A stretch of 60,599 bases of DNA, taken from positions 1-60,599 of the IMG/VR virus record IMGVR_UViG_3300035138_000104. One strand, written 5' to 3'. The notes below the pieces were generated by a model. It had not been told where the DNA came from and did not search any database. It was given only the letters and a program-made list of their open reading frames with translations. Position 1 is the stretch's first letter; each line of letters starts with the position of its first letter. Positions 1,782 through 53,960 of the stretch are shown here, piece by piece. The position numbers and the translations under genes were made by a program. The DNA is from a virus.

Positions 1782-2641
1782 GACTCCTGGAATGATTTTT
1801 TAACTTCGTCAGGGATAATAACTTTTTCATAACTATTGATATTTTTTTTATTTAAAATTTGTTGTGCTTTTATGTTATCATAACTCCCATTTATTAAAGC
1901 AGGTAAAAAACCATTATCTTTTAACCATTTATTTTTAAATGCAATATTAAAAAATAATTTACATTCTTCAATAGATTTAAATTTATTTAATAATAAAGAT
2001 AGCTGTTTAAGTTGTTTATTTGATTTATATATCAAGTTATTTATTTGTTCTTGTGTATAAATTTTTAATAAAATATTATTATAAATCATTTTATAATCAT
2101 TATAATTATTTTTAATTGTTTTTTTATTAACACTTAAAGCATTTATAGTATTAACACTTAAAGCATTTGTGTCTAATTTTCCACTGTCTTGATTTTCCAC
2201 TGTCTTGATTTTGGGACTCTGGATAATATCTGTTTTATTTTTTGACCATATATAATTAATTCTTACATACCAACCAACAACTTTATTTTCTTTATTTATC
2301 CGTTTAATATTTTGTATAAGACCTATATCTTTTAAAATTTTTTTTGCTTTATAAAATTTTGTTTTACTCCATTTTAAGCCTTTCACACAATAAGTATCCG
2401 TACATTTAGGTTGATTTGTTTTTTGCCATTTTGCAGTATAATAATAAAAAGTATAAAGACCTATCAAATCTGAAGCATTACTATATTGTAAAAACTTTTC
2501 TATTGTTTCCTTGCTTAATATTACTAATTGATTCTCTAAAAAATCAAATTGATCTATTTCTTGTTTAATTGGCTCATAAGTCTCAATTTTGAATGTTTCA
2601 TTATTTGTTTTCTGAAATTCAGTTTGTTTATTTACTTCCAC
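1772..2641 (-). CDS. Putative replication initiator / origin-binding protein
   Basis: 289 aa with a GTG start 7 nt after AAGGAG. It lies directly upstream of dnaB and overlaps it. It carries two sets of tandem DNA repeats internally (2126..2212). Confidence 0.5.
   Translation of the reverse strand: MEVNKQTEFQKTNNETFKIETYEPIKQEIDQFDFLENQLVILSKETIEKFLQYSNASDLIGLYTFYYYTAKWQKTNQPKCTDTYCVKGLKWSKTKFYKAKKILKDIGLIQNIKRINKENKVVGWYVRINYIWSKNKTDIIQSPKIKTVENQDSGKLDTNALSVNTINALSVNKKTIKNNYNDYKMIYNNILLKIYTQEQINNLIYKSNKQLKQLSLLLNKFKSIEECKLFFNIAFKNKWLKDNGFLPALINGSYDNIKAQQILNKKNINSYEKVIIPDEVKKSFQESWL
2126..2212. promoter_or_regulatory. Candidate origin iterons inside the initiator gene
   Basis: ATTAACACTTAAAGCATTT occurs twice (2126-2144 and 2150-2168, 24-bp period). 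CCACTGTCTTGATTTT then occurs twice in tandem (2181-2196 and 2197-2212, 16-bp period, so the two copies are read in different codon phases). Confidence 0.5.
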
Positions 2642-2660
2642 TTTTTAACTCCTTAAAAAT

Positions 2661-2742
2661 AAAAAAAGCCCCTTATTAGAGAGATGAAAGGCTCGGACAG
2701 AGACCTAACACCCCCTAATAAGAGGCTTTTCATTCTGTCCGA
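2661..2742 (-). ncRNA. 5'-flank/apical-loop complementary RNA element, copy 1 (leader of the initiator-dnaB operon)
   Basis: RNA sense: UCGGACAGA (2742-2734) is complementary to UCUGUCCGA inside the 12-nt loop 2703-2692. The outer stem is GCCUCUUAUUAG (2726-2715) with CUAAUAAGGGGC (2679-2668), 12 bp including one G-U that would be A-C on the plus strand. A U7 run follows (2667-2661). Confidence 0.6.
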
Positions 2743-3203: not shown

Positions 3204-3223
3204 TATTATCCCTTAAAATAAAT

Positions 3224-3297
3224 TAGCCCCCCTCAGATTCGAACTGAGATTCATGAGTTTCTAAAACTCACGGCTTTACCAGTTAGCCCAGAGAGCC
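3224..3297 (-). tRNA. tRNA with anticodon UAG (Leu box) but class I shape (5-nt variable loop)
   Basis: 74 nt. Acceptor GGCUCUC/GGGGGCU (three G-U pairs), D loop with GG, anticodon stem UGAGU/ACUCA, loop UUUAGAA, T arm CUCAG-UUCGAAU-CUGAG, A73, no encoded CCA. Confidence 0.8.
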
Positions 3298-3300
3298 ATT

Positions 3301-3372
3301 GGGTATAAACGGGATTTGAACCCTGACCTTTTGATTCACAGTCAAATATGCTACCATTACAACATTTATACC
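3301..3372 (-). tRNA. tRNA-His (GUG)
   Basis: 72 nt. Acceptor GGUAUAA/UUAUACC, anticodon stem UUUGA/UCAAA, loop CUGUGAA, T loop UUCAAAU. The T stem has only three clean G-C pairs. Confidence 0.6.
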
Positions 3373-3374
3373 AT

Positions 3375-3447
3375 AAGCCTTGAATAGACTTGAACTATTA
3401 TTACAGGATTCAAAGTCCTGTGTCCTAACCAATTGGACGACAAGGCT
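3375..3447 (-). tRNA. tRNA-Gln (UUG)
   Basis: 73-nt clean cloverleaf. Acceptor AGCCUUG/CAAGGCU, D stem GUCC/GGAC, anticodon stem CAGGA/UCCUG with loop CUUUGAA, T arm AAUAG-UUCAAGU-CUAUU. Confidence 0.85.
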
Positions 3448-3449
3448 AT

Positions 3450-3522
3450 TCAGCGTGGGTGGACTCGAACCACCGACATCTTGATTCCAAGTCAAGTAGG
3501 CTACCAACTGCCCTACACACTG
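3450..3522 (-). tRNA. tRNA-Pro (UGG)
   Basis: 73 nt. Acceptor CAGUGUG/CACGCUG (C1-G72), anticodon stem CUUGA/UCAAG with loop CUUGGAA, T arm GGUGG-UUCGAGU-CCACC. Confidence 0.85.
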
Positions 3523-3525
3523 TAT

Positions 3526-3598
3526 TACTCGAGGTGAGATTCGAACTCACACTTGATGGATTTTAAGTCCACTATCTCTGCCGTCGGATTACTCGAGC
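3526..3598 (-). tRNA. tRNA with anticodon UAA (Leu box) but class I shape (5-nt variable loop)
   Basis: 73 nt. Acceptor GCUCGAG/CUCGAGU, U8, GG in the D loop, anticodon stem GUGGA/UCCAU with loop CUUAAAA, variable CAAGU, T arm GUGAG-UUCGAAU-CUCAC, A73. Confidence 0.85.
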
Positions 3599-3686
3599 AT
3601 AAAAAAGGCTTTTATCAAAAAGGTATAAGTGATCGGCAGAAAACTTACACACAAATTAATAAAAGCCTTATCCTGCCGATCTTTAT
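3599..3686 (-). ncRNA. 5'-flank/apical-loop complementary RNA element, copy 2 (inside the tRNA array)
   Basis: RNA sense: GAUCGGCAG (3681-3673) is complementary to CUGCCGAUC in the 12-nt loop UUUCUGCCGAUC (3642-3631). Inner stem GUGUAAGU/ACUUAUAC (3650-3643 with 3630-3623) includes one G-U that is A-C on the plus strand. Outer stem AAGGCUUUUAU/AUAAAAGCCUU (3669-3659 with 3615-3605), then UUUUAU. Confidence 0.6.
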
Positions 3687-3759
3687 TTGCAGGTATGGGA
3701 GTCGAACCCAATATTTCTAGCTCATGAGACTAGCGTGTAAACCGTTTCACTCACCTACA
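3687..3759 (-). tRNA. tRNA with anticodon CAU (Met or Ile2 type)
   Basis: 73 nt. Acceptor UGUAGGU/ACCUGCA, anticodon stem CUAGU/GCUAG with loop CUCAUGA, T arm UUGGG-UUCGACU-CCCAU, A73. Confidence 0.8.
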
Positions 3760-3765
3760 AACGAT

Positions 3766-3795
3766 ATCATACTAAAACCGTTGGATGTTTGTCAA
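3766..3795 (-). promoter_or_regulatory. Sigma70-type promoter of the tRNA array
   Basis: TTGACA (3795-3790), 18 nt, TATGAT (3771-3766). The 7th nt downstream is 3759, which is the first nucleotide of the CAU tRNA. Confidence 0.55.
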
Positions 3796-8211: not shown

Positions 8212-8268
8212 AATGACCTCCTTAAAATAATTATTAAAGAAGCCCACTTAATGAGCTTCGTAAAATAA

Positions 8269-8508
8269 TTATTCAATTTTAAATAACCTATCACGTGTTG
8301 TAATAACACATTTGCCTTCTTCAAGATTAGGAGCAAAACCCATAATATAAACCATGCCAGAATTATTTTTAGGATTTCCATTTCTTAAATATCCATCTTG
8401 TTTATATTCATCTTTAATAGGGTTCTCTTTTTCGATGTACTGTATAAGCTCATCTTTTTCAAACTCTTTTCCATTAACAATCCATTTTTCTTTTAATTCA
8501 ACAGCCAT
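8269..8508 (-). CDS. Hypothetical protein (79 aa)
   Basis: Minus-strand ORF in the early gene train with GGAGG upstream. Confidence 0.65.
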   Translation of the reverse strand: MAVELKEKWIVNGKEFEKDELIQYIEKENPIKDEYKQDGYLRNGNPKNNSGMVYIMGFAPNLEEGKCVITTRDRLFKIE

Positions 8509-37833: not shown

Positions 37834-38532
37834 TTACCTCTGAGTTTCATTCAACCTATACGCCGAATTATTCTTGCCTATATGCTGAAAATAATTATCG
37901 GTAAAATAAGCAATCTTAAGTCCTTTTCCTGCAACCTGGCAGGCATAATTGAACTCAAAACCGAATATATCTTCTCTAAAGCGCAAATTATTTTCTTTTA
38001 GCTTTTTGACATTGATTAAGCTAGGATTCAAAGTGAACCCTGGAAATGCTGGTCTGCCTAGACTATCAACTGATTTGACATTATAGTCATATTTTATATA
38101 TTTTTTATTGCCTAATTTTAAAGTCTTTTGCCCTATTGCTGTTATATCAGCTTTACGGTGGTATTGGACCTGGACAACATTATCATGCTTATTAAATATC
38201 TGAAACGCAGTTTTAATGAAATTATCAGACTTAACGCACTCCCAATCGTCCTCACATAAGAACAAATAATCATTAGATACTAGATTAAATAAAACATTCA
38301 TAGATTTTGGATGCGACTTATATTCTGTTTTATTCACAAATATTAATGGCTTGCCTAATTTTTTTAATAGTCCCATCATTAAAATAATATCTGGTAATTC
38401 TGAATTATCGTCTATCAATATTATTTCTGATACCAGATCCCATTCCTTAAAGTTCTTCAATAATGAATTGAATGTTTTTAAAAATAAGTTATATCGTTTG
38501 CATGTAATAAAGCCTAATGAAATTTTTAACAT
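37834..38532 (-). CDS. Glycosyltransferase family 2-like
   Basis: 232 aa. ILIDDNS (DxD-type) and LCEDDW. Confidence 0.6.
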   Translation of the reverse strand: MLKISLGFITCKRYNLFLKTFNSLLKNFKEWDLVSEIILIDDNSELPDIILMMGLLKKLGKPLIFVNKTEYKSHPKSMNVLFNLVSNDYLFLCEDDWECVKSDNFIKTAFQIFNKHDNVVQVQYHRKADITAIGQKTLKLGNKKYIKYDYNVKSVDSLGRPAFPGFTLNPSLINVKKLKENNLRFREDIFGFEFNYACQVAGKGLKIAYFTDNYFQHIGKNNSAYRLNETQR

Positions 38533-39765: not shown

Positions 39766-39944
39766 TTTTTTAATTCCTTTAAAAGTTCTTTTGTTATTTT
39801 ATTTCTTTCTTGCAAAACTTCTTTTAATATTTTCATTGACACTTGTATATATATGCTTCCATCATAATCATTACAAACATATATATCTATATTATCACCA
39901 TTAAGTTCAATAAAGTCTTTTTGTGCAGTGTACCATTTGCTCAT
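39762..39944 (-). CDS. Hypothetical protein (60 aa), first gene after leader element copy 3
   Basis: AAGGAGAAAUAAG precedes the ATG at 39944. Confidence 0.6.
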   Translation of the reverse strand: MSKWYTAQKDFIELNGDNIDIYVCNDYDGSIYIQVSMKILKEVLQERNKITKELLKELKK

Positions 39945-39957
39945 CTTATTTCTCCTT

Positions 39958-40036
39958 AAAATAAAAAAGACTTTCTGAAGGATGGGAACTGCGAGCTACC
40001 CATTTAACCCTGTCAAAAAGTCTTTTTCTCGCAGTT
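39958..40036 (-). ncRNA. 5'-flank/apical-loop complementary RNA element, copy 3 (leader of the glycan island operon)
   Basis: RNA sense: AACUGCGAG (40036-40028) is complementary to CUCGCAGUU in the 12-nt loop UAGCUCGCAGUU (39998-39987). Inner stem AUGGG/CCCAU. Outer stem AAAAAGACUUU/AAAGUCUUUUU (40027-40017 with 39974-39964), then UAUUUU. Confidence 0.6.
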
Positions 40037-40043
40037 AATATAG

Positions 40044-40071
40044 ATTATACTGCAATATTTTTATTTGTCAA
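40044..40071 (-). promoter_or_regulatory. Sigma70-type promoter
   Basis: TTGACA (40071-40066), 16 nt, TATAAT (40049-40044). The predicted start is about 40039-40036, at the first nucleotides of element copy 3. Confidence 0.7.
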
Positions 40072-40078
40072 ATATTTT

Positions 40079-41101
40079 TTATAAAATAATCGGTTTTTTA
40101 ACACACCTGCAAAAAAACTCTAATCCTGGTTTTGTCACTGGCGCACCTATAGCAGCCCTACTTTTCCATTTATTATTCTTAACATCCTCCAGAGTATCAG
40201 CATAAACCGAATCATCATTGAACTTGCAAAACTTCTTATGAAGCACGTAATGATTTCCATGCCCCTTGCTTGGATCAGGATATTTCCCGGATGGATCACC
40301 CACCACACGATAATCATCCATTGTCAACCACTGATAAACATGTATACCTGCATCTGTAAATCTGGAAGTCGATAGATCAGAATAGAAAAGCGTTGTTTCC
40401 TGCCTGGCCAAGAATCTAGCCTTTGACTTACTCGTCTCAAACTCTGTCTGTATAGCTTCGATCATCTTTTGTCTATTATAGCCCTCATATGTCATTTTGG
40501 AAACCATTTCTCTCAGCCTCTCAACCTGCTTAGTATCCCAACAGTCCGGATCTAACTCATTAACAATTGACAGTTCCATATTTTTATTATATTGCTCAAC
40601 CATTTGCTGCCTGATATAATCATTAGGAGTATATCGAATACCTAGATCGATTCGTTCTTTATTCAATACACTGTCCATTTCCTTTGATACGCTATCAATA
40701 TTAAAATCAATACCCCTTATTTTATCTTTTGATGTGTTCGCAATATTATCAATAACGGTTTTCATCCTGGAATGTAATTGTCTGGCTTTTTCATTAACAA
40801 TGACAGAAGCTGATAATATATCTTTTGGGATTAATGTCTTATCCTTGATCTTCCATCGTTTAGTATATTTATTAAACTTAGCAAACTTTCTTAACTCATT
40901 AGATACCTTCATATTAAAGACGCCGTATATTTCATCACCCTGAAATACTACACGTCCTTTATTAATAGCATTTATTACATCATTAGTGGAATTATAAAGC
41001 GGTTCTTTGAATAGTTCTAAGATTGGTTCAAAATATGTTTTATAGAAATAATCCCTGAGCTGTTCCTCAATATCTGAATACCATGATTGTTTTATTCGCA
41101 T
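40079..41101 (-). CDS. Head morphogenesis protein, Mu F / SPP1 gp7 family
   Basis: 340 aa. It sits in the portal-proximal head block, and its C-terminal FFCRCV resembles the H.NCRC motif of the family. Confidence 0.65.
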   Translation of the reverse strand: MRIKQSWYSDIEEQLRDYFYKTYFEPILELFKEPLYNSTNDVINAINKGRVVFQGDEIYGVFNMKVSNELRKFAKFNKYTKRWKIKDKTLIPKDILSASVIVNEKARQLHSRMKTVIDNIANTSKDKIRGIDFNIDSVSKEMDSVLNKERIDLGIRYTPNDYIRQQMVEQYNKNMELSIVNELDPDCWDTKQVERLREMVSKMTYEGYNRQKMIEAIQTEFETSKSKARFLARQETTLFYSDLSTSRFTDAGIHVYQWLTMDDYRVVGDPSGKYPDPSKGHGNHYVLHKKFCKFNDDSVYADTLEDVKNNKWKSRAAIGAPVTKPGLEFFCRCVKKPIIL

Positions 41102-45053: not shown

Positions 45054-46505
45054 TTATTTCTCCTTATTAAAAATATTATTAAAAAACTTCTTTACCTTTG
45101 AATTAGGCATATCTGGAACTTCAGGTGTTTGCTGCTTTTTTCGATAAACACTGACTGTATTCTGTTGTTCCTGATCAACACCTTCCTGAAAATTAGGCTC
45201 TGGCTTCTCTGGTACATATCCGACATCTATTCCTATTATACCTTCTTTCTGTCCCCATGAAACCGCTTTATCCATACCAATAGCGCCTCTATCATACCAC
45301 CCCCAAATTCTTTGAGTTTTACTGGTGGCAATCTGTTCTTCCTGTTCTGCCGACATTATCCTTAAAGGTGGAAAAGTAATCTCATATTGAGGTACATCAC
45401 CATGAACTATCTGAAATGCCATATCAATCAATATAGGCAAAGTATCATATTTTAACGGTTCTCTGATTTCACTTTCAACCATACTGTTATAATTTTCAAG
45501 ATCATCTTCACCCGAATTAAACCCAGCTGCCGACATACCAAATAATTTAGTCATAGGGAAATTTATTGCAGCTGCTATACCCATTCTATTTTGATTCATT
45601 ACTTCAGCCAACCCGGCAAAAGACAAACTCTTTTGATCAAACTTATCCTGAGCATCCAATAATAAAGCATTAAGATAACTCTTGATTTCATTAACCGCCT
45701 GTATTCTTGTTTGTATATTTCTGGTCCCCCCGACTGTTGCCAGTTTATTTGCAAGTCCCTGTATATAGTAAACATCGATTTTACTCTCGTCTAATATTTC
45801 ATATAAAACATCCTGAGTCTTAAGATATAAATTAAGATCTCTTATAATCCTTTCACCTTCAGACATTCCCCATCCTCTAAGTTGTCTTGCAAGATAATGA
45901 GGTGCTTCTTCTCCTCTACCTATTAATACCCTTGATTTATGTATTTTTCTTCCGAATATAAAGAAATGTTCCAAATCTCCAACATCATAAGAAATATTAT
46001 CAAGATAATCAAAGGGCATCTTTGTTGAAGATAACTGCCATCTGTCAACTGCATAAAATCTTAATGGCCCATTCTTAAGTTCTTTTATATTTAATTCTTC
46101 TTCAGGATTCTGATTTGTATTTATTATCAAAGCACTACCACCGAATAATCGCTTCCAAATTAAAAACTGTCTGGTATTAGAAAATAACTTATACTTTCTA
46201 AACCACTTGAATACCTTATCAATATCTTCTTTCGATGCTTCATCAGAATCTATCTCAAAGCCTTTTGACAATGCATCACAAACAGGTAATCTAATAACTC
46301 TCTGGAATATACCGTTACCTGCGAATAAATAAGACAATACTATCCAATTTAAAGTAAGTAATGCATAATTATTATCACCTTGAATTGTTGCATATGTTGA
46401 CAAAGTCGATCCGCCACCTGTGAATGATTGCCACTGATTTATCGTAGTAGCCAAGTCAGCTAAACTGTTGGCTATAATTTTACTGGTTGATCTATTTTTA
46501 GACAT
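45054..46505 (-). CDS. Portal protein
   Basis: 483 aa, the second gene after the large terminase. The size and position are typical for a portal. Confidence 0.65.
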   Translation of the reverse strand: MSKNRSTSKIIANSLADLATTINQWQSFTGGGSTLSTYATIQGDNNYALLTLNWIVLSYLFAGNGIFQRVIRLPVCDALSKGFEIDSDEASKEDIDKVFKWFRKYKLFSNTRQFLIWKRLFGGSALIINTNQNPEEELNIKELKNGPLRFYAVDRWQLSSTKMPFDYLDNISYDVGDLEHFFIFGRKIHKSRVLIGRGEEAPHYLARQLRGWGMSEGERIIRDLNLYLKTQDVLYEILDESKIDVYYIQGLANKLATVGGTRNIQTRIQAVNEIKSYLNALLLDAQDKFDQKSLSFAGLAEVMNQNRMGIAAAINFPMTKLFGMSAAGFNSGEDDLENYNSMVESEIREPLKYDTLPILIDMAFQIVHGDVPQYEITFPPLRIMSAEQEEQIATSKTQRIWGWYDRGAIGMDKAVSWGQKEGIIGIDVGYVPEKPEPNFQEGVDQEQQNTVSVYRKKQQTPEVPDMPNSKVKKFFNNIFNKEK

Positions 46506-46771: not shown

Positions 46772-48316
46772 TTAAACATCCCAGATAGATAAATTAAGAT
46801 TAACCTCAGCCCTGCCTATCATATAAGCTTCAGCTATATTTGGAGATTTACTTTTAGCTTTTTTATCAATAATTATCTTTCCACTTGCTGTTAATTTTTG
46901 TAAAGGCTGAGATAATTCACTCATAAATTTATTAAATAGTGGATGGTCAATCATTTGACTAAAATCTATTAATTTCGTAGCATCATGTTGTTCTTTGTTC
47001 ATATAATGATATGTTTGAAGAAATTCGTCTCTTATTTTATAATAAGCTTGAGACTTAGCGTTTTCGAAAAAGTCTTTATTTGGCCTTTTCTCATCAAAAT
47101 CATAATCGTCAGGCCTAATAACTTTTCCAGACGCAGCCCAGCCAATAATCCTTATACTTAAAGCTTTTTTGTTATTTAGTTCATCTTTCCTTAATTCATC
47201 TAAAATTACATTTAATCCGGCTTTTATTCCGGTCCCTACACCTATATTATCATAACGGAATTCATCACAATCAAATTCTATTGCTCTATAGAAAGCCTTA
47301 CGTGCCGTTTCATTAGGATCTGGACTGGACCATTCTTCTAAATGCAATAAAGTATTGCCATTCATAATACATAAAGCGTTAGTATCAGTACCTTCATCTG
47401 CAACATCAAGGCTAGCAATCCTTTTACCTATTATACCCACATTACAAACTTTTGCTAAATGCGTCCATTCCGCAGGTATCAATATATTCTCAACACTGGC
47501 CAAAGGATTTCTTTCTATCTCTCTTCTAAAAATATGAATAAGCCCACTTGCATAATACTTTTTCCGTTCAGACTCAAACCATTCCTGAGTATGTCTAGGA
47601 TTCTCCCACCAATCAAACGTAAATATAGGTAATTCTCCGGATACAATTTTTTGATAAAATAATGTCGCTGTTCCTGCATGTGTTGATATATCTATTTTAC
47701 AATCACTAGACTTTGACATTGCAGCTTCTATTGATTCAGCCTGCTCATAAAAAGCCGATTCATCTTTAAAGATTATTGTTTGTCTATCACCTCTTAATGG
47801 ATTATCTCCTGATGCCCCTACGATTACAGATTTAGTTTCATAATTAGTTATAAGCATTAATTTAGTTTCGACTGATTGTTTATACATATTTGGAAGATTA
47901 TCTATTATAAAAACAGCTTTTTCAAATAAAGTTCCCATCTTCCCAATAGTATGACATTCACTTGCCTTATATGTAAAAAAAGCTATAGATACATTATTCC
48001 TAAATAATAATAAAAAAATAGAAAATGCAATAAAACACCATGTAGCCCCTACATCACGGCATTTATCAACGCATCCGTCTTCCTGGTTTTGATATCGGGT
48101 AAATAACCATTTAATAAAATCTATTTGTTTTGGATATAATTCAAAGGGTATTATTTTATGCCCAGATAATCTAGGATCATAAGTGAAGCAGAAACGATTT
48201 ATAAAATCAATACAGGAATCGACTTCGTTATAGGGGACCGAGTATAATGTTTTATAATGATTAAGTAGCTCTTTGTCTAATAAGGTTTTAATGCGTTCTT
48301 TAAACGGAATCAGCAT
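46772..48316 (-). CDS. terL: Terminase large subunit
   Basis: 514 aa. KCRDVGATW (terminase-type Walker A variant), IIFKDESAF (Walker B), and a nuclease-half acidic motif LDVADEGTDTNAL. It lies downstream of the small subunit. Confidence 0.8.
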   Translation of the reverse strand: MLIPFKERIKTLLDKELLNHYKTLYSVPYNEVDSCIDFINRFCFTYDPRLSGHKIIPFELYPKQIDFIKWLFTRYQNQEDGCVDKCRDVGATWCFIAFSIFLLLFRNNVSIAFFTYKASECHTIGKMGTLFEKAVFIIDNLPNMYKQSVETKLMLITNYETKSVIVGASGDNPLRGDRQTIIFKDESAFYEQAESIEAAMSKSSDCKIDISTHAGTATLFYQKIVSGELPIFTFDWWENPRHTQEWFESERKKYYASGLIHIFRREIERNPLASVENILIPAEWTHLAKVCNVGIIGKRIASLDVADEGTDTNALCIMNGNTLLHLEEWSSPDPNETARKAFYRAIEFDCDEFRYDNIGVGTGIKAGLNVILDELRKDELNNKKALSIRIIGWAASGKVIRPDDYDFDEKRPNKDFFENAKSQAYYKIRDEFLQTYHYMNKEQHDATKLIDFSQMIDHPLFNKFMSELSQPLQKLTASGKIIIDKKAKSKSPNIAEAYMIGRAEVNLNLSIWDV

Positions 48317-53887: not shown

Positions 53888-53960
53888 TAGGCACGGTAGG
53901 ATTCGAACCTACGATGTAACTTAATGCAAACTAGTATGACTCAAGCCTTTGTCCATGCCT
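53888..53960 (-). tRNA. Degenerate tRNA-like element (UGC at the anticodon position)
   Basis: 73 nt. Good acceptor stem AGGCAUG/CGUGCCU and T arm GUAGG-UUCGAAU-CCUAC. The D stem is displaced and has 3 bp (GAC/GUC), and the anticodon stem is weak (ACUAG/UAAGU with an A-A mismatch). Confidence 0.4.

Follow-up and report, generated by a model that had tools for sequence, protein, structure and literature searches.

Leader elements of an uncultured tailed phage with a flank complementary to the loop of their own hairpin

Attenuators place a hairpin with a run of uridines (U-run) close behind the promoter and directly upstream of the regulated genes, and their antiterminators take up nucleotides of the terminator 5′ arm. 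In Bacillus subtilis pyrG, an extended 5′ end of the transcript reportedly pairs with the attenuator hairpin, so that the first bases disable the downstream terminator. In pT181 and pIP501, antisense RNA drives the attenuation of replication genes, with a 5′-proximal segment that blocks the terminator and a complementary loop that sequesters this segment. Here, elements of the same general attenuator/leader kind are described that occur in four copies (c1–c4) in a viral DNA record (IMG/VR IMGVR_UViG_3300035138_000104, positions 1–60,599); the whole of this stretch of 60,599 nucleotides (nt) is referred to as the window. Each copy combines a short flank, A, with a long hairpin whose loop carries the complement of A, termed A′. 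Unusually for the kind, the competing helices share no nucleotides, and the flank usually comprises the first bases of the transcript.

Like pyrG and other attenuators, the elements present a promoter-proximal U-run hairpin directly upstream of the genes that would be regulated, and as in pyrG the alternative pairing would be made by the first transcript bases before the terminator is complete. In contrast to these systems, A pairs with the loop and not with the terminator 5′ arm, so that the exclusion would be topological or steric, and a homopolymeric start for reiterative transcription as in pyrG is absent. With pT181 and pIP501 the elements share a Firmicute-type leader logic in which the loop carries the specificity, but the complementary loop resides within the same sense RNA instead of an opposite-strand countertranscript. 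No conserved antisense promoter was found at the elements; the plus strand has a single promoter-like site facing c3 (39836–39865, 10 of 12 matches), and in a close relative (the 96% relative, contig L001) another gene takes the place of the one that contains it. Matches of this quality occur at chance frequency in this A+T-rich DNA. Both pyrG and T7 φ10 are precedents for first transcript bases that disable a downstream terminator. In the case of T7, abortive transcripts from φ10 suppress termination at Tφ, and compensatory mutations restore the effect (PMC2952870). There, too, the initially transcribed bases can pair with a portion of the unit's own terminator hairpin, yet the T7 system works in trans through free abortive RNAs of 4–6 nt, which are made by T7 RNA polymerase and bind a terminator some 1 kb distant in the 5′ half of its stem (PMC2952870), whereas the complement described here measures 8–9 nt, lies in a loop 34–44 nt downstream and is tethered in cis.

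An initial annotation of the window had not recognized a known RNA family in copy 3. This agrees with scans against Rfam 15, in which no family reached its gathering threshold at the elements: the whole window returned six tRNAs only, c1–c3 at E values up to 10 matched PyrR best (17.5–21.8 bits, threshold 54), and the elements of four related contigs (L341, L293, L295 and L294) gave no matches.

Architecture and covariation of the elements

All four copies lie on the minus strand and follow a common plan, in which flank A (8–9 nt) is followed after 0–5 nt by an interrupted hairpin of 23–29 bp with a loop of about 12 nt, and the 3′ part of this loop, A′, is the exact complement of A. The initial annotation had singled out copy 3 (39958–40071), and its coordinates and sequences for this copy all match the window sequence:

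40044–40071, minus strand: predicted promoter, beginning 7 nt past the stop codon of a MuF-like gene; TTGACA 40071–40066, 16-nt spacer, TATAAT 40049–40044, 12 of 12 consensus matches
40036–40028, minus strand: flank A, AACUGCGAG (DNA letters AACTGCGAG), 7 nt past the −10 box, predicted +1
40027–39964, minus strand: hairpin, directly abutting A without a spacer
40027–40013 with 39978–39964, minus strand: outer stem, 15 bp
Mid-hairpin: bulged C at 40012, 3 bp AGG/CCU, 5-nt bulge GUUAA on the 5′ side
40003–39999 with 39986–39982, minus strand: inner stem, AUGGG with CCCAU, 5 bp
39998–39987, minus strand: loop, 12 nt, TAGCTCGCAGTT
39995–39987, minus strand: A′, CUCGCAGUU, 9 of 9 nt complementary to A, with UAG on its 5′ side and 0 nt on its 3′ side
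39963–39942, minus strand: tail; the hairpin is followed by UUUUUUAUUUU ahead of AAGGAG, and the U-run (39968–39963) overlaps the stem base and continues as UAUUUU
39957–39952 and 39944, minus strand: AAGGAG and ATG of the first open reading frame (ORF, 60 aa) of a glycosyltransferase island

Three further loci had been reported to have the layout of copy 3, and c1 (2742–2655), c2 (3681–3601) and c4 (57192–57113) indeed share the plan:

2778–2773 and 2756–2751, minus strand: copy 1 promoter, TTGACA and TAATAT
2742–2734, minus strand: copy 1 flank A, UCGGACAGA
2731–2663, minus strand: copy 1 hairpin, about 27 bp
2701–2693, minus strand: copy 1 A′, UCUGUCCGA
2667–2655, minus strand: copy 1 U-run, then AAGGAG and GTG at 2641
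3681–3673, minus strand: copy 2 flank A, GAUCGGCAG
3669–3605, minus strand: copy 2 hairpin
3639–3631, minus strand: copy 2 A′, CUGCCGAUC
3606–3601, minus strand: copy 2 U-run, ending 2 nt ahead of tRNA-Leu
57228–57223 and 57206–57201, minus strand: copy 4 promoter, TTGAAA and TATACT
57192–57185, minus strand: copy 4 flank A, GAUCGAAG, extended by UAAG beyond a 1-nt bulge
57178–57115, minus strand: copy 4 hairpin
57146–57139, minus strand: copy 4 A′, CUUCGAUC

Copy 1 precedes a replication-protein-like ORF, which is followed by a DnaB-type helicase gene. An AUG overlapping the end of its flank opens a frame of 26 codons (2639–2733, minus strand) that crosses the entire hairpin to a UAA just ahead of the Shine–Dalgarno (SD) sequence of the next gene. 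Copy 2 is located between tRNA-Met (3687–3759) and tRNA-Leu (3526–3598), its flank beginning 5–7 nt past the end of tRNA-Met (A starts at 3681, tRNA-Met ends at 3686–3688). Copy 4 has no U-run (tail UUUCAUUG), and the SD sequence and ATG (57066) follow about 45 nt further downstream. The sequences of the four copies had been called entirely different, which goes too far: the outer stems share AAAAG[ACG]CUUU...AAAG[UC]CUUUU (AAAAGNCUUU/AAAGNCUUUU), and the flanks of c1, c2 and c4 share AUCG. Moreover, the layout of the loop is constant, with 2–4 mostly U/A nucleotides on the 5′ side of A′ (UAG, UUA, UUAU, UUUG, UUC) and 0–1 nt on its 3′ side, so that an A:A′ helix would stack on the inner stem.

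The flank–loop architecture is real and far beyond chance. When the window was scanned for 8-mers with at least 3 G/C and a complement at an arm gap of 25–50 nt, provided that a stem of 12 bp or longer encloses the complement and begins no more than 8 nt from the flank, four sites were obtained on the minus strand, which are c1–c4 (stems 14–21 bp), and none on the plus strand; in 60 dinucleotide shuffles of the window, the number of sites averaged 0.03 and never exceeded 1. In addition, the transcribed strand of the window offers every loop 9-mer just one perfect 9-nt partner, its own flank. Apart from these pairs, a match of 9 nt occurs only at 45353 and involves an offset word overlapping the U-rich spacer of a loop, no second 9-nt target of the loops exists on the minus strand of the window, and matches of 7–8 nt are scattered at chance level.

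Related contigs, all from uncultured phages, were fetched via the neighboring MuF-like, DnaD-like and RuvC-like genes. They contributed six further distinct elements, several of them orthologous, which brings the family to ten distinct elements with nine different A/A′ sequences:

L001 and L293: copy 3 orthologues, A/A′ AACUGCGA(G)/(C)UCGCAGUU
L002 (= L008): copy 3 orthologue, A AAACCAUCA, A′ UGAUGGUUU
L295 and L294: copy 3 orthologue, A AAACCAUGA, A′ UCAUGGUUU
L341: orthologue of c1, A/A′ AAGCGUUAC/GUAACGCUU, conserved outer stem, DnaD-like protein 66%
L343, 8130–8210: member in a more distant phage, carrying ACAGGUUAC
L345, 6624–6715: member in a more distant phage, carrying CACACAAC, upstream of a phage replication-O gene

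All four copies recur in the 96% relative, c1, c2 and c4 without change and copy 3 with one different loop base outside A′. In phages with MuF proteins of 60–65% identity, an orthologous element directly follows the MuF-like gene, while some relatives with MuF proteins of 46–61% identity have no element at this place. Between L002 and L295, A:A′ differs by a single compensated swap of C:G to G:C, and most of the nine A/A′ positions of either differ from those of the window, with the outer stem AAAAGACUUUUU...AAAGUCUUUU being kept. Since MAFFT alignments were out of structural register even for trimmed 50-nt constructs, covariation was tallied on a hand-made structural alignment of seven distinct elements. 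In this alignment, 97% of the A:A′ cells form pairs, each of the nine columns has changed on both sides, and neither the observed pairing nor the covariation was reached in any of 2000 partner shuffles; the outer stem covaries as well. As the register was chosen by eye, the tally is biased towards pairing, a bias from which the shuffle statistic of the architecture scan is free. The co-variation of flank and loop proposed in the initial annotation is thus borne out by related phages that keep A:A′ at orthologous positions with changed sequence, and this pattern indicates that selection acts on the A:A′ pairing.

A covariance model built from the copy 3 orthologues recovered c1, c2 and L341 weakly, missed c4, and detected no extra copies in the window. 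Searching IMG/VR with words of the outer stem (AAAAGACTTTT...AAAGTCTTTT and AAGGCTTT...AAAGCCTT) returned the 96% relative and unrelated hairpins without flank–loop complementarity. Likewise, the architecture scan of about 340 MuF-, DnaD-like- and RuvC-linked loci (ca. 4 Mb) yielded, beyond the members listed, only weak matches in coding regions.

Folding order and a tentative role in antitermination

Several features assign the structure to the sense RNA. Between 2 and 7 G·U pairs are present in each of seven elements counted (3 in copy 3), in all ten elements the fold of the coding strand is favored over that of the opposite strand by 5.6–19.5 kcal/mol (copy 3 hairpin, −28.1 kcal/mol, z = −4.6 relative to shuffled sequences; its opposite strand, only −19.2 kcal/mol), and all ten are oriented in the direction of the genes. 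Together, these points argue against a structure of duplex DNA or of an antisense transcript, and the leader RNA postulated in the initial annotation stands as a real RNA family of the sense strand. A DNA-level signal, in which the nested inverted repeats would form a cruciform or a hairpin of single-stranded DNA and would serve in replication or recombination or act as a mosaic junction, might be suspected because c1, L341 and L345 adjoin replication genes, because the homology of the window with the 96% relative stops exactly after the U-run, and because one promoter-plus-leader cassette occurs in different gene contexts (L294, L295). We nevertheless consider it highly improbable, given the G·U pairs and the energy advantage of the coding strand. 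Furthermore, a cruciform cannot accommodate all segments of the order A, B, C, A′, C′, B′, every element is oriented with transcription, and the differing sequences of the copies rule out a common DNA-binding protein.

The order in which the two folds could arise was computed along the growing chain with nested-structure thermodynamics. If the chain is cut at the end of A′, all pairs of the A:A′ helix are present in the minimum free energy structure of each of the ten elements and persist for 8–20 nt more (9 of 9 pairs in copy 3). In this predicted nascent fold, the A:A′ helix encloses the 5′ arm of the hairpin, and only once most of the 3′ arm is present does the long hairpin become the minimum free energy structure (10/10). 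The A:A′ duplexes amount to −9.6 to −15.1 kcal/mol (−13.0 kcal/mol in copy 3), the finished hairpins to −19 to −44 kcal/mol. A:A′ crosses hairpin pairs, and partial coexistence as a pseudoknot is possible. An alternative pairing that excludes the terminator and is able to form first, as demanded of an attenuator, is hence predicted for each of the ten elements. The terminator itself, a stable stem–loop directly followed by at least six U, is present in c1–c3 and all six relatives (nine of ten distinct elements), c4 being the exception; with stems of 23–29 bp and loops of about 12 nt, these hairpins are atypically long, and a consensus scanner for terminators with loops of 3–8 nt did not list them.

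In eight of eleven contexts (c1, c3, c4, L001, L002, L293, L295/L294 and L341), A begins 5–8 nt past a σ70-type −10 box and hence at a predicted position of about +1. The remaining three are c2, which follows a tRNA, and L343 and L345, with A 75–90 nt downstream of the promoter. The initial annotation had placed A at the 5′ end of the transcript, which is therefore a frequent, but not a defining, location. At c1, c3 and c4, the promoter abuts or overlaps the upstream stop codon, and no separate terminator was found between the two, so that the element is the only terminator-like signal at these module borders. Downstream, an SD-like AGGAG (AAAGGA in L341) follows the hairpin after 4–14 nt in seven contexts, with a start codon 6–7 nt later.

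Such an arrangement might also suit a stability or processing module of the 5′ untranslated region. In this scenario, A:A′ would hide the 5′ terminus from pyrophosphohydrolase and a 5′-to-3′ exonuclease (RNase J1-type, Firmicutes), the hairpin beside the SD sequence would be a 5′ stabilizer or RNase III site, and the U-run an A/U-rich translation enhancer. The position of A near +1 in most contexts, the SD-like motif and start codon close behind the hairpin in seven of them, the persistence of the pairing without a U-run in copy 4 and the size of the stems (at least 20 bp, as for RNase III substrates) speak in its favor. However, c2 precedes tRNAs and no mRNA, A is not at the terminus in L343 and L345, and A is single-stranded in the favored final fold, which is the opposite of protection. 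A 5′-terminal hairpin alone would protect without any flank–loop complementarity. We regard this explanation as unlikely.

Another candidate is a promoter with a proximal terminator that awaits an antiterminator protein of the phage, as in λ PR′/tR′ with Q, the complementarity being incidental or protein-binding. Promoter, short transcript and U-run terminator ahead of a gene block indeed resemble lambdoid late units, and the sequence of the outer stem is conserved beyond the needs of pairing. Yet, this option leaves unexplained why nine A/A′ sequences are kept complementary by double-sided changes, it does not fit the location of c2 inside a tRNA array, and no antiterminator-like protein was recognized among the part of the ORFs that was scanned, so that we deem it very unlikely. 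The elements may further be compared with HK022 put, a short structured nascent RNA that acts in cis on the transcribing polymerase and whose structure is conserved above its sequence (PMC9378689). Like put, the elements are promoter-proximal and occur in a few copies per phage genome, but put consists of two adjacent stem–loops without U-run or flank–loop complementarity, and no similarity was detected.

The location of c2 directly after a phage tRNA-Met without encoded CCA also recalls the theta ribozymes, in which a 5′ strand pairs inside a helix that closes at the 3′ end (PMC10879173). In a self-cleaving ribozyme of this type, related to that of hepatitis delta virus (HDV), A:A′ would correspond to P1 and the outer stem to P2, and by cleaving just ahead of A the ribozyme would remove the 3′ trailer of a tRNA or generate the 5′ end of an mRNA. 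The topology resembles P1, P2, P1′, P2′, and c2 is bordered by tRNA-Met and tRNA-Leu, the types with which theta ribozymes are most frequently associated (PMC10879173). However, the elements lack P3, P1.1 and the catalytic C: no P3 hairpin precedes the 3′ strand of P1 and not even one of 3 bp can be drawn before A′ in c1–c4, no conserved C occurs at J4/2, and the junction of inner and outer 3′ arms measures 0–4 nt (none in c3). Junction lengths do not fit either, with J1/2 at just 0–5 nt next to a "P2" of 14–24 bp. Among theta ribozymes linked to tRNAs, 77% are found no more than 1 nt from the tRNA, and a cleavage site less than about 5 nt from the tRNA 3′ end would be demanded of this subgroup; in c2, A starts 5–7 nt past the tRNA end, and the other copies are not located beside a tRNA 3′ end. 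Finally, A at +1 would leave nothing to cleave off, and no HDV-type Rfam model matched at E values up to 10. A ribozyme is hence hardly to be reckoned with.

Our tentative reading, to which we give somewhat less than an even chance, is that of a cis-acting sense-strand leader with two mutually exclusive folds, in which A:A′ would hold off the terminator. A, in most copies the first bases of the transcript, would pair with A′ once the latter emerges, forming a G+C-rich helix of 8–9 bp around the 5′ arm of the hairpin. After synthesis of the 3′ arm, the far more stable hairpin of 23–29 bp would become available, which resembles an intrinsic terminator in nine of ten elements. For termination, the foot of this hairpin beside the U-run is needed, and it may stay open as long as A:A′ persists in vivo: A is tethered 0–5 nt from the foot and A′ sits in the loop at the far end, so that the foot could not close, and by our estimate roughly the lower 10 bp of the 23–29 bp helix would be held open. 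A:A′ would thereby act as a built-in antiterminator that has no nucleotide in common with the terminator stem, and the balance of the folds would set the read-through of polymerase into the downstream module, i. e. replication genes, the tRNA block or the glycosyltransferase island.

A number of observations weigh against this reading. Compared with the best fold in which A:A′ is kept, the final hairpin gains 4–29 kcal/mol in stability, and a fast stepwise conversion may turn A:A′ into a delay rather than a block of the terminator. Steric exclusion, as we infer it, is a back-of-the-envelope estimate. Copy 4 keeps A:A′ without a U-run, hence termination would not be the whole story there. The term "switch" may be too strong altogether, as a fixed tuning device is possible. 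In addition, the window contains strong promoters without such a leader (8780–8753 and 46765–46736), from which it follows that the element is no general requirement for transcription in this phage, and the family was encountered only within a limited group of uncultured phages, ca. 4 Mb of loci from other phages having yielded just weak matches inside coding regions. Of the exclusive folds and the antiterminator/terminator switch proposed in the initial annotation, mutual exclusion as nested structures and the nascent A:A′ fold are thus retained for all ten elements, whereas the steric component is an estimate and the terminator part does not extend to copy 4.

As to the signal that might set the balance, no riboswitch was matched in c1–c3 (Rfam, E values up to 10), no candidate for an RNA-binding regulator was recognized among the ORFs scanned, and no conserved leader peptide was found. 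A leader-peptide model was rejected, as the AUG-to-UAA frame spans c1 only and is not conserved. Two further models were discarded: an anti-antiterminator, in which promoter-region RNA of read-through transcripts pairs with A, finds a 7-bp match (UUGCAGU) in the promoter spacer of c3 and nothing comparable elsewhere, and a fold-back in which A:A′ and the full hairpin coexist suffers from mismatched helix lengths and from the lack of a flexible joint in c1 and L002.

Possible release of the hairpins and action in trans

The most economical input signal, at the level of a guess, would be free copies of the same hairpin that titrate A via their loop. As A and the loop are both free in the finished hairpin and are each other's sole complements in the genome, accumulated hairpins could bind nascent A and favor termination. 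Comparable logic is found in P4 CI RNA with seqA and in IsrK (PMC4825925), as well as in antisense attenuation of the pT181 type. Conceivably, the element is therefore a topological antiterminator, in which a helix with the terminator's own loop blocks the foot by tethering and freed hairpins titrate the nascent flanks, each unit thus shutting itself off; this extended proposal appears doubtful to us. If true, four orthogonal flank/loop codes would provide four independent RNA-only timers per genome, one of which meters a tRNA block. To our knowledge, neither exclusion by non-overlapping helices nor a self-antisense loop encoded in the sense RNA has been described as a mechanism.

The strongest rival to the cis-acting switch, although we rate it as improbable in its own right, is a self-directed antisense RNA that acts in trans. 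A hairpin RNA of about 75–90 nt would be released, either by termination at the U-run or, for c2, through processing by RNase Z and RNase P, and A′ in its loop would pair with A of other molecules. Targets could be nascent transcripts of the same unit, resulting in autoregulation or timed shut-off as for P4 CI–seqA or IsrK, or other hairpins in head-to-tail dimers. The four A/A′ pairs would form four non-interfering channels, and such a function would be compatible with the cis switch, to which it could supply the input signal. The layout of the loop would stack A′ on the 3′ arm, as in the recognition loops of antisense RNAs, and the own flank is the only perfect genomic target of each loop. 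Cis pairing within the finished hairpin looks sterically impossible, which would leave A and A′ free. Furthermore, c2 is bounded exactly by two tRNAs, consistent with a discrete excised RNA and no mRNA to regulate. Orthologues at similar protein distance carry either of two discrete A/A′ types with the outer stem kept, as is typical of specificity determinants, yet ordinary compensatory drift can also yield discrete sequence types. Moreover, the tethered partner in cis should outcompete a partner in trans unless the latter is very abundant.

Precedents for the trans option are leader-derived small RNAs involved in premature termination, namely the CI RNA of P4 with seqA and seqC, the C4 RNA of P1/P7 and IsrK of Salmonella Gifsy-1 (PMC4825925). 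As in P4 CI and C4, the loop has its complement further upstream in its own transcript (ten of ten elements), and the specificity differs between related phages with the complementarity being kept. In contrast to both, a second target downstream at the SD sequence or start codon (seqC in P4, or a2/b2 at the ribosome-binding site in P1) is missing, no tRNA-like fold or CCA end for RNase P is present, and the Rfam models for C4/CI and isrK were unmatched. Four copies per genome contrast with the single copy of these systems, and no lysogeny module was found among the ORFs examined.

If the pairing works as proposed for the cis-acting leader, it would represent a new design of RNA leader, in which competing helices have no common nucleotides and neither protein nor metabolite is needed. 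It would also explain how a phage of 60–64 kb with all its genes on one strand separates its modules with consensus host-type promoters and without terminator-then-promoter junctions. With about 80 nt, the element is modular and programmable, moves with its own promoter between gene contexts and is available in nine natural flank/loop codes, which could make it an attractive orthogonal part for synthetic RNA circuits, similar to the use of the pT181 attenuator. Whatever the mechanism, Rfam does not contain this covariation-supported motif, which could be added there as a family of its own.

Genome context and further observations

The window is a tailed-phage genome with 29.5% G+C over 60.6 kb, in which every ORF of at least 100 aa that makes up the gene map lies on the minus strand and Firmicute-type signals (TTGACA/TATAAT promoters, AAGGAG ribosome-binding sites) prevail. 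The features recognized include:

Structural genes: small terminase, portal, a weak MuF-like protein
40079–41101, minus strand: MuF-like ORF, stop TAA 40081–40079
DNA metabolism genes: SSB, RuvC-like resolvase, DnaB-type helicase, NinB/Orf-like protein
Other genes: M23 peptidase; GT2 glycosyltransferase (GT2 domain in ORF 37834–38532)
3223–3760: six tRNA genes (tRNA-model scan of the window)

Megablast of 3 kb around copy 3 gave no match among deposited phage genomes. One IMG/VR contig of 64,043 nt encodes proteins of about 96–99% identity to those of the window and is circularly permuted relative to it. From this permutation of the window (with IMGVR_UViG_3300037297_000231) against the 64,043-nt relative, the genome probably comprises about 64 kb, of which the window would be short by about 3.4 kb. 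Homology between the window and the 96% relative ends exactly after the U-run of copy 3 (39958–39963 in the window, 5139–5200 in L001), with different genes beyond, and judged from these sequences the copy 3 element heads a variable island and lies at a mosaic breakpoint. In L294, the promoter-plus-leader cassette is found one gene further downstream, ahead of a different gene; near-identical cassettes thus precede different genes in L294 and L295. In both contigs, the head genes that directly precede the MuF-like gene include one for an Acb2/Tad1-type protein (L294 1108–1410, L295 630–896), whose family carries the annotation of anti-CBASS/anti-Thoris sponges. Intein-type insertions with Hint and LAGLIDADG domains interrupt the large-terminase genes of other relatives (L002 863–3160, L006 4944–7364); the syntenic ORF of the window (514 aa, 46772–48316) is shorter and matched no Pfam family.

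Next to copy 2, tRNA-Met begins 7 nt past the −10 box TATGAT (3771–3766) of a TTGACA-18-TATGAT promoter (3753–3795, minus strand), which places the predicted transcript start at or next to the mature 5′ end and leaves practically no leader for RNase P; CCA is not encoded in this gene. Far from the main tRNA array, a tRNA-like sequence (53888–53960, minus strand) combines a perfect T arm (GUAGGUUCGAAUCCUAC) with a 7-bp acceptor stem. It scores 23.9 bits with the Rfam tRNA model (threshold 29), is not called by ARAGORN, and could represent a tRNA that is degenerate or unusual, or else a tRNA-like element. In L343, the stretch directly after the family member (8225–8335) contains a T-arm-like motif (GUAAGUAUCGAAUCUUAC) without an ARAGORN tRNA call, which recalls the position of copy 2 inside a tRNA array. 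The leader of the DnaD-like gene in the same contig (9056–9200) is built differently, with a 5′ hairpin whose loop (CUUUGCC) is complementary to GGCAAAG in the U-run hairpin that lies downstream. This leader may solve the same problem in another way or, with a match of only a 7-mer, be a product of chance.

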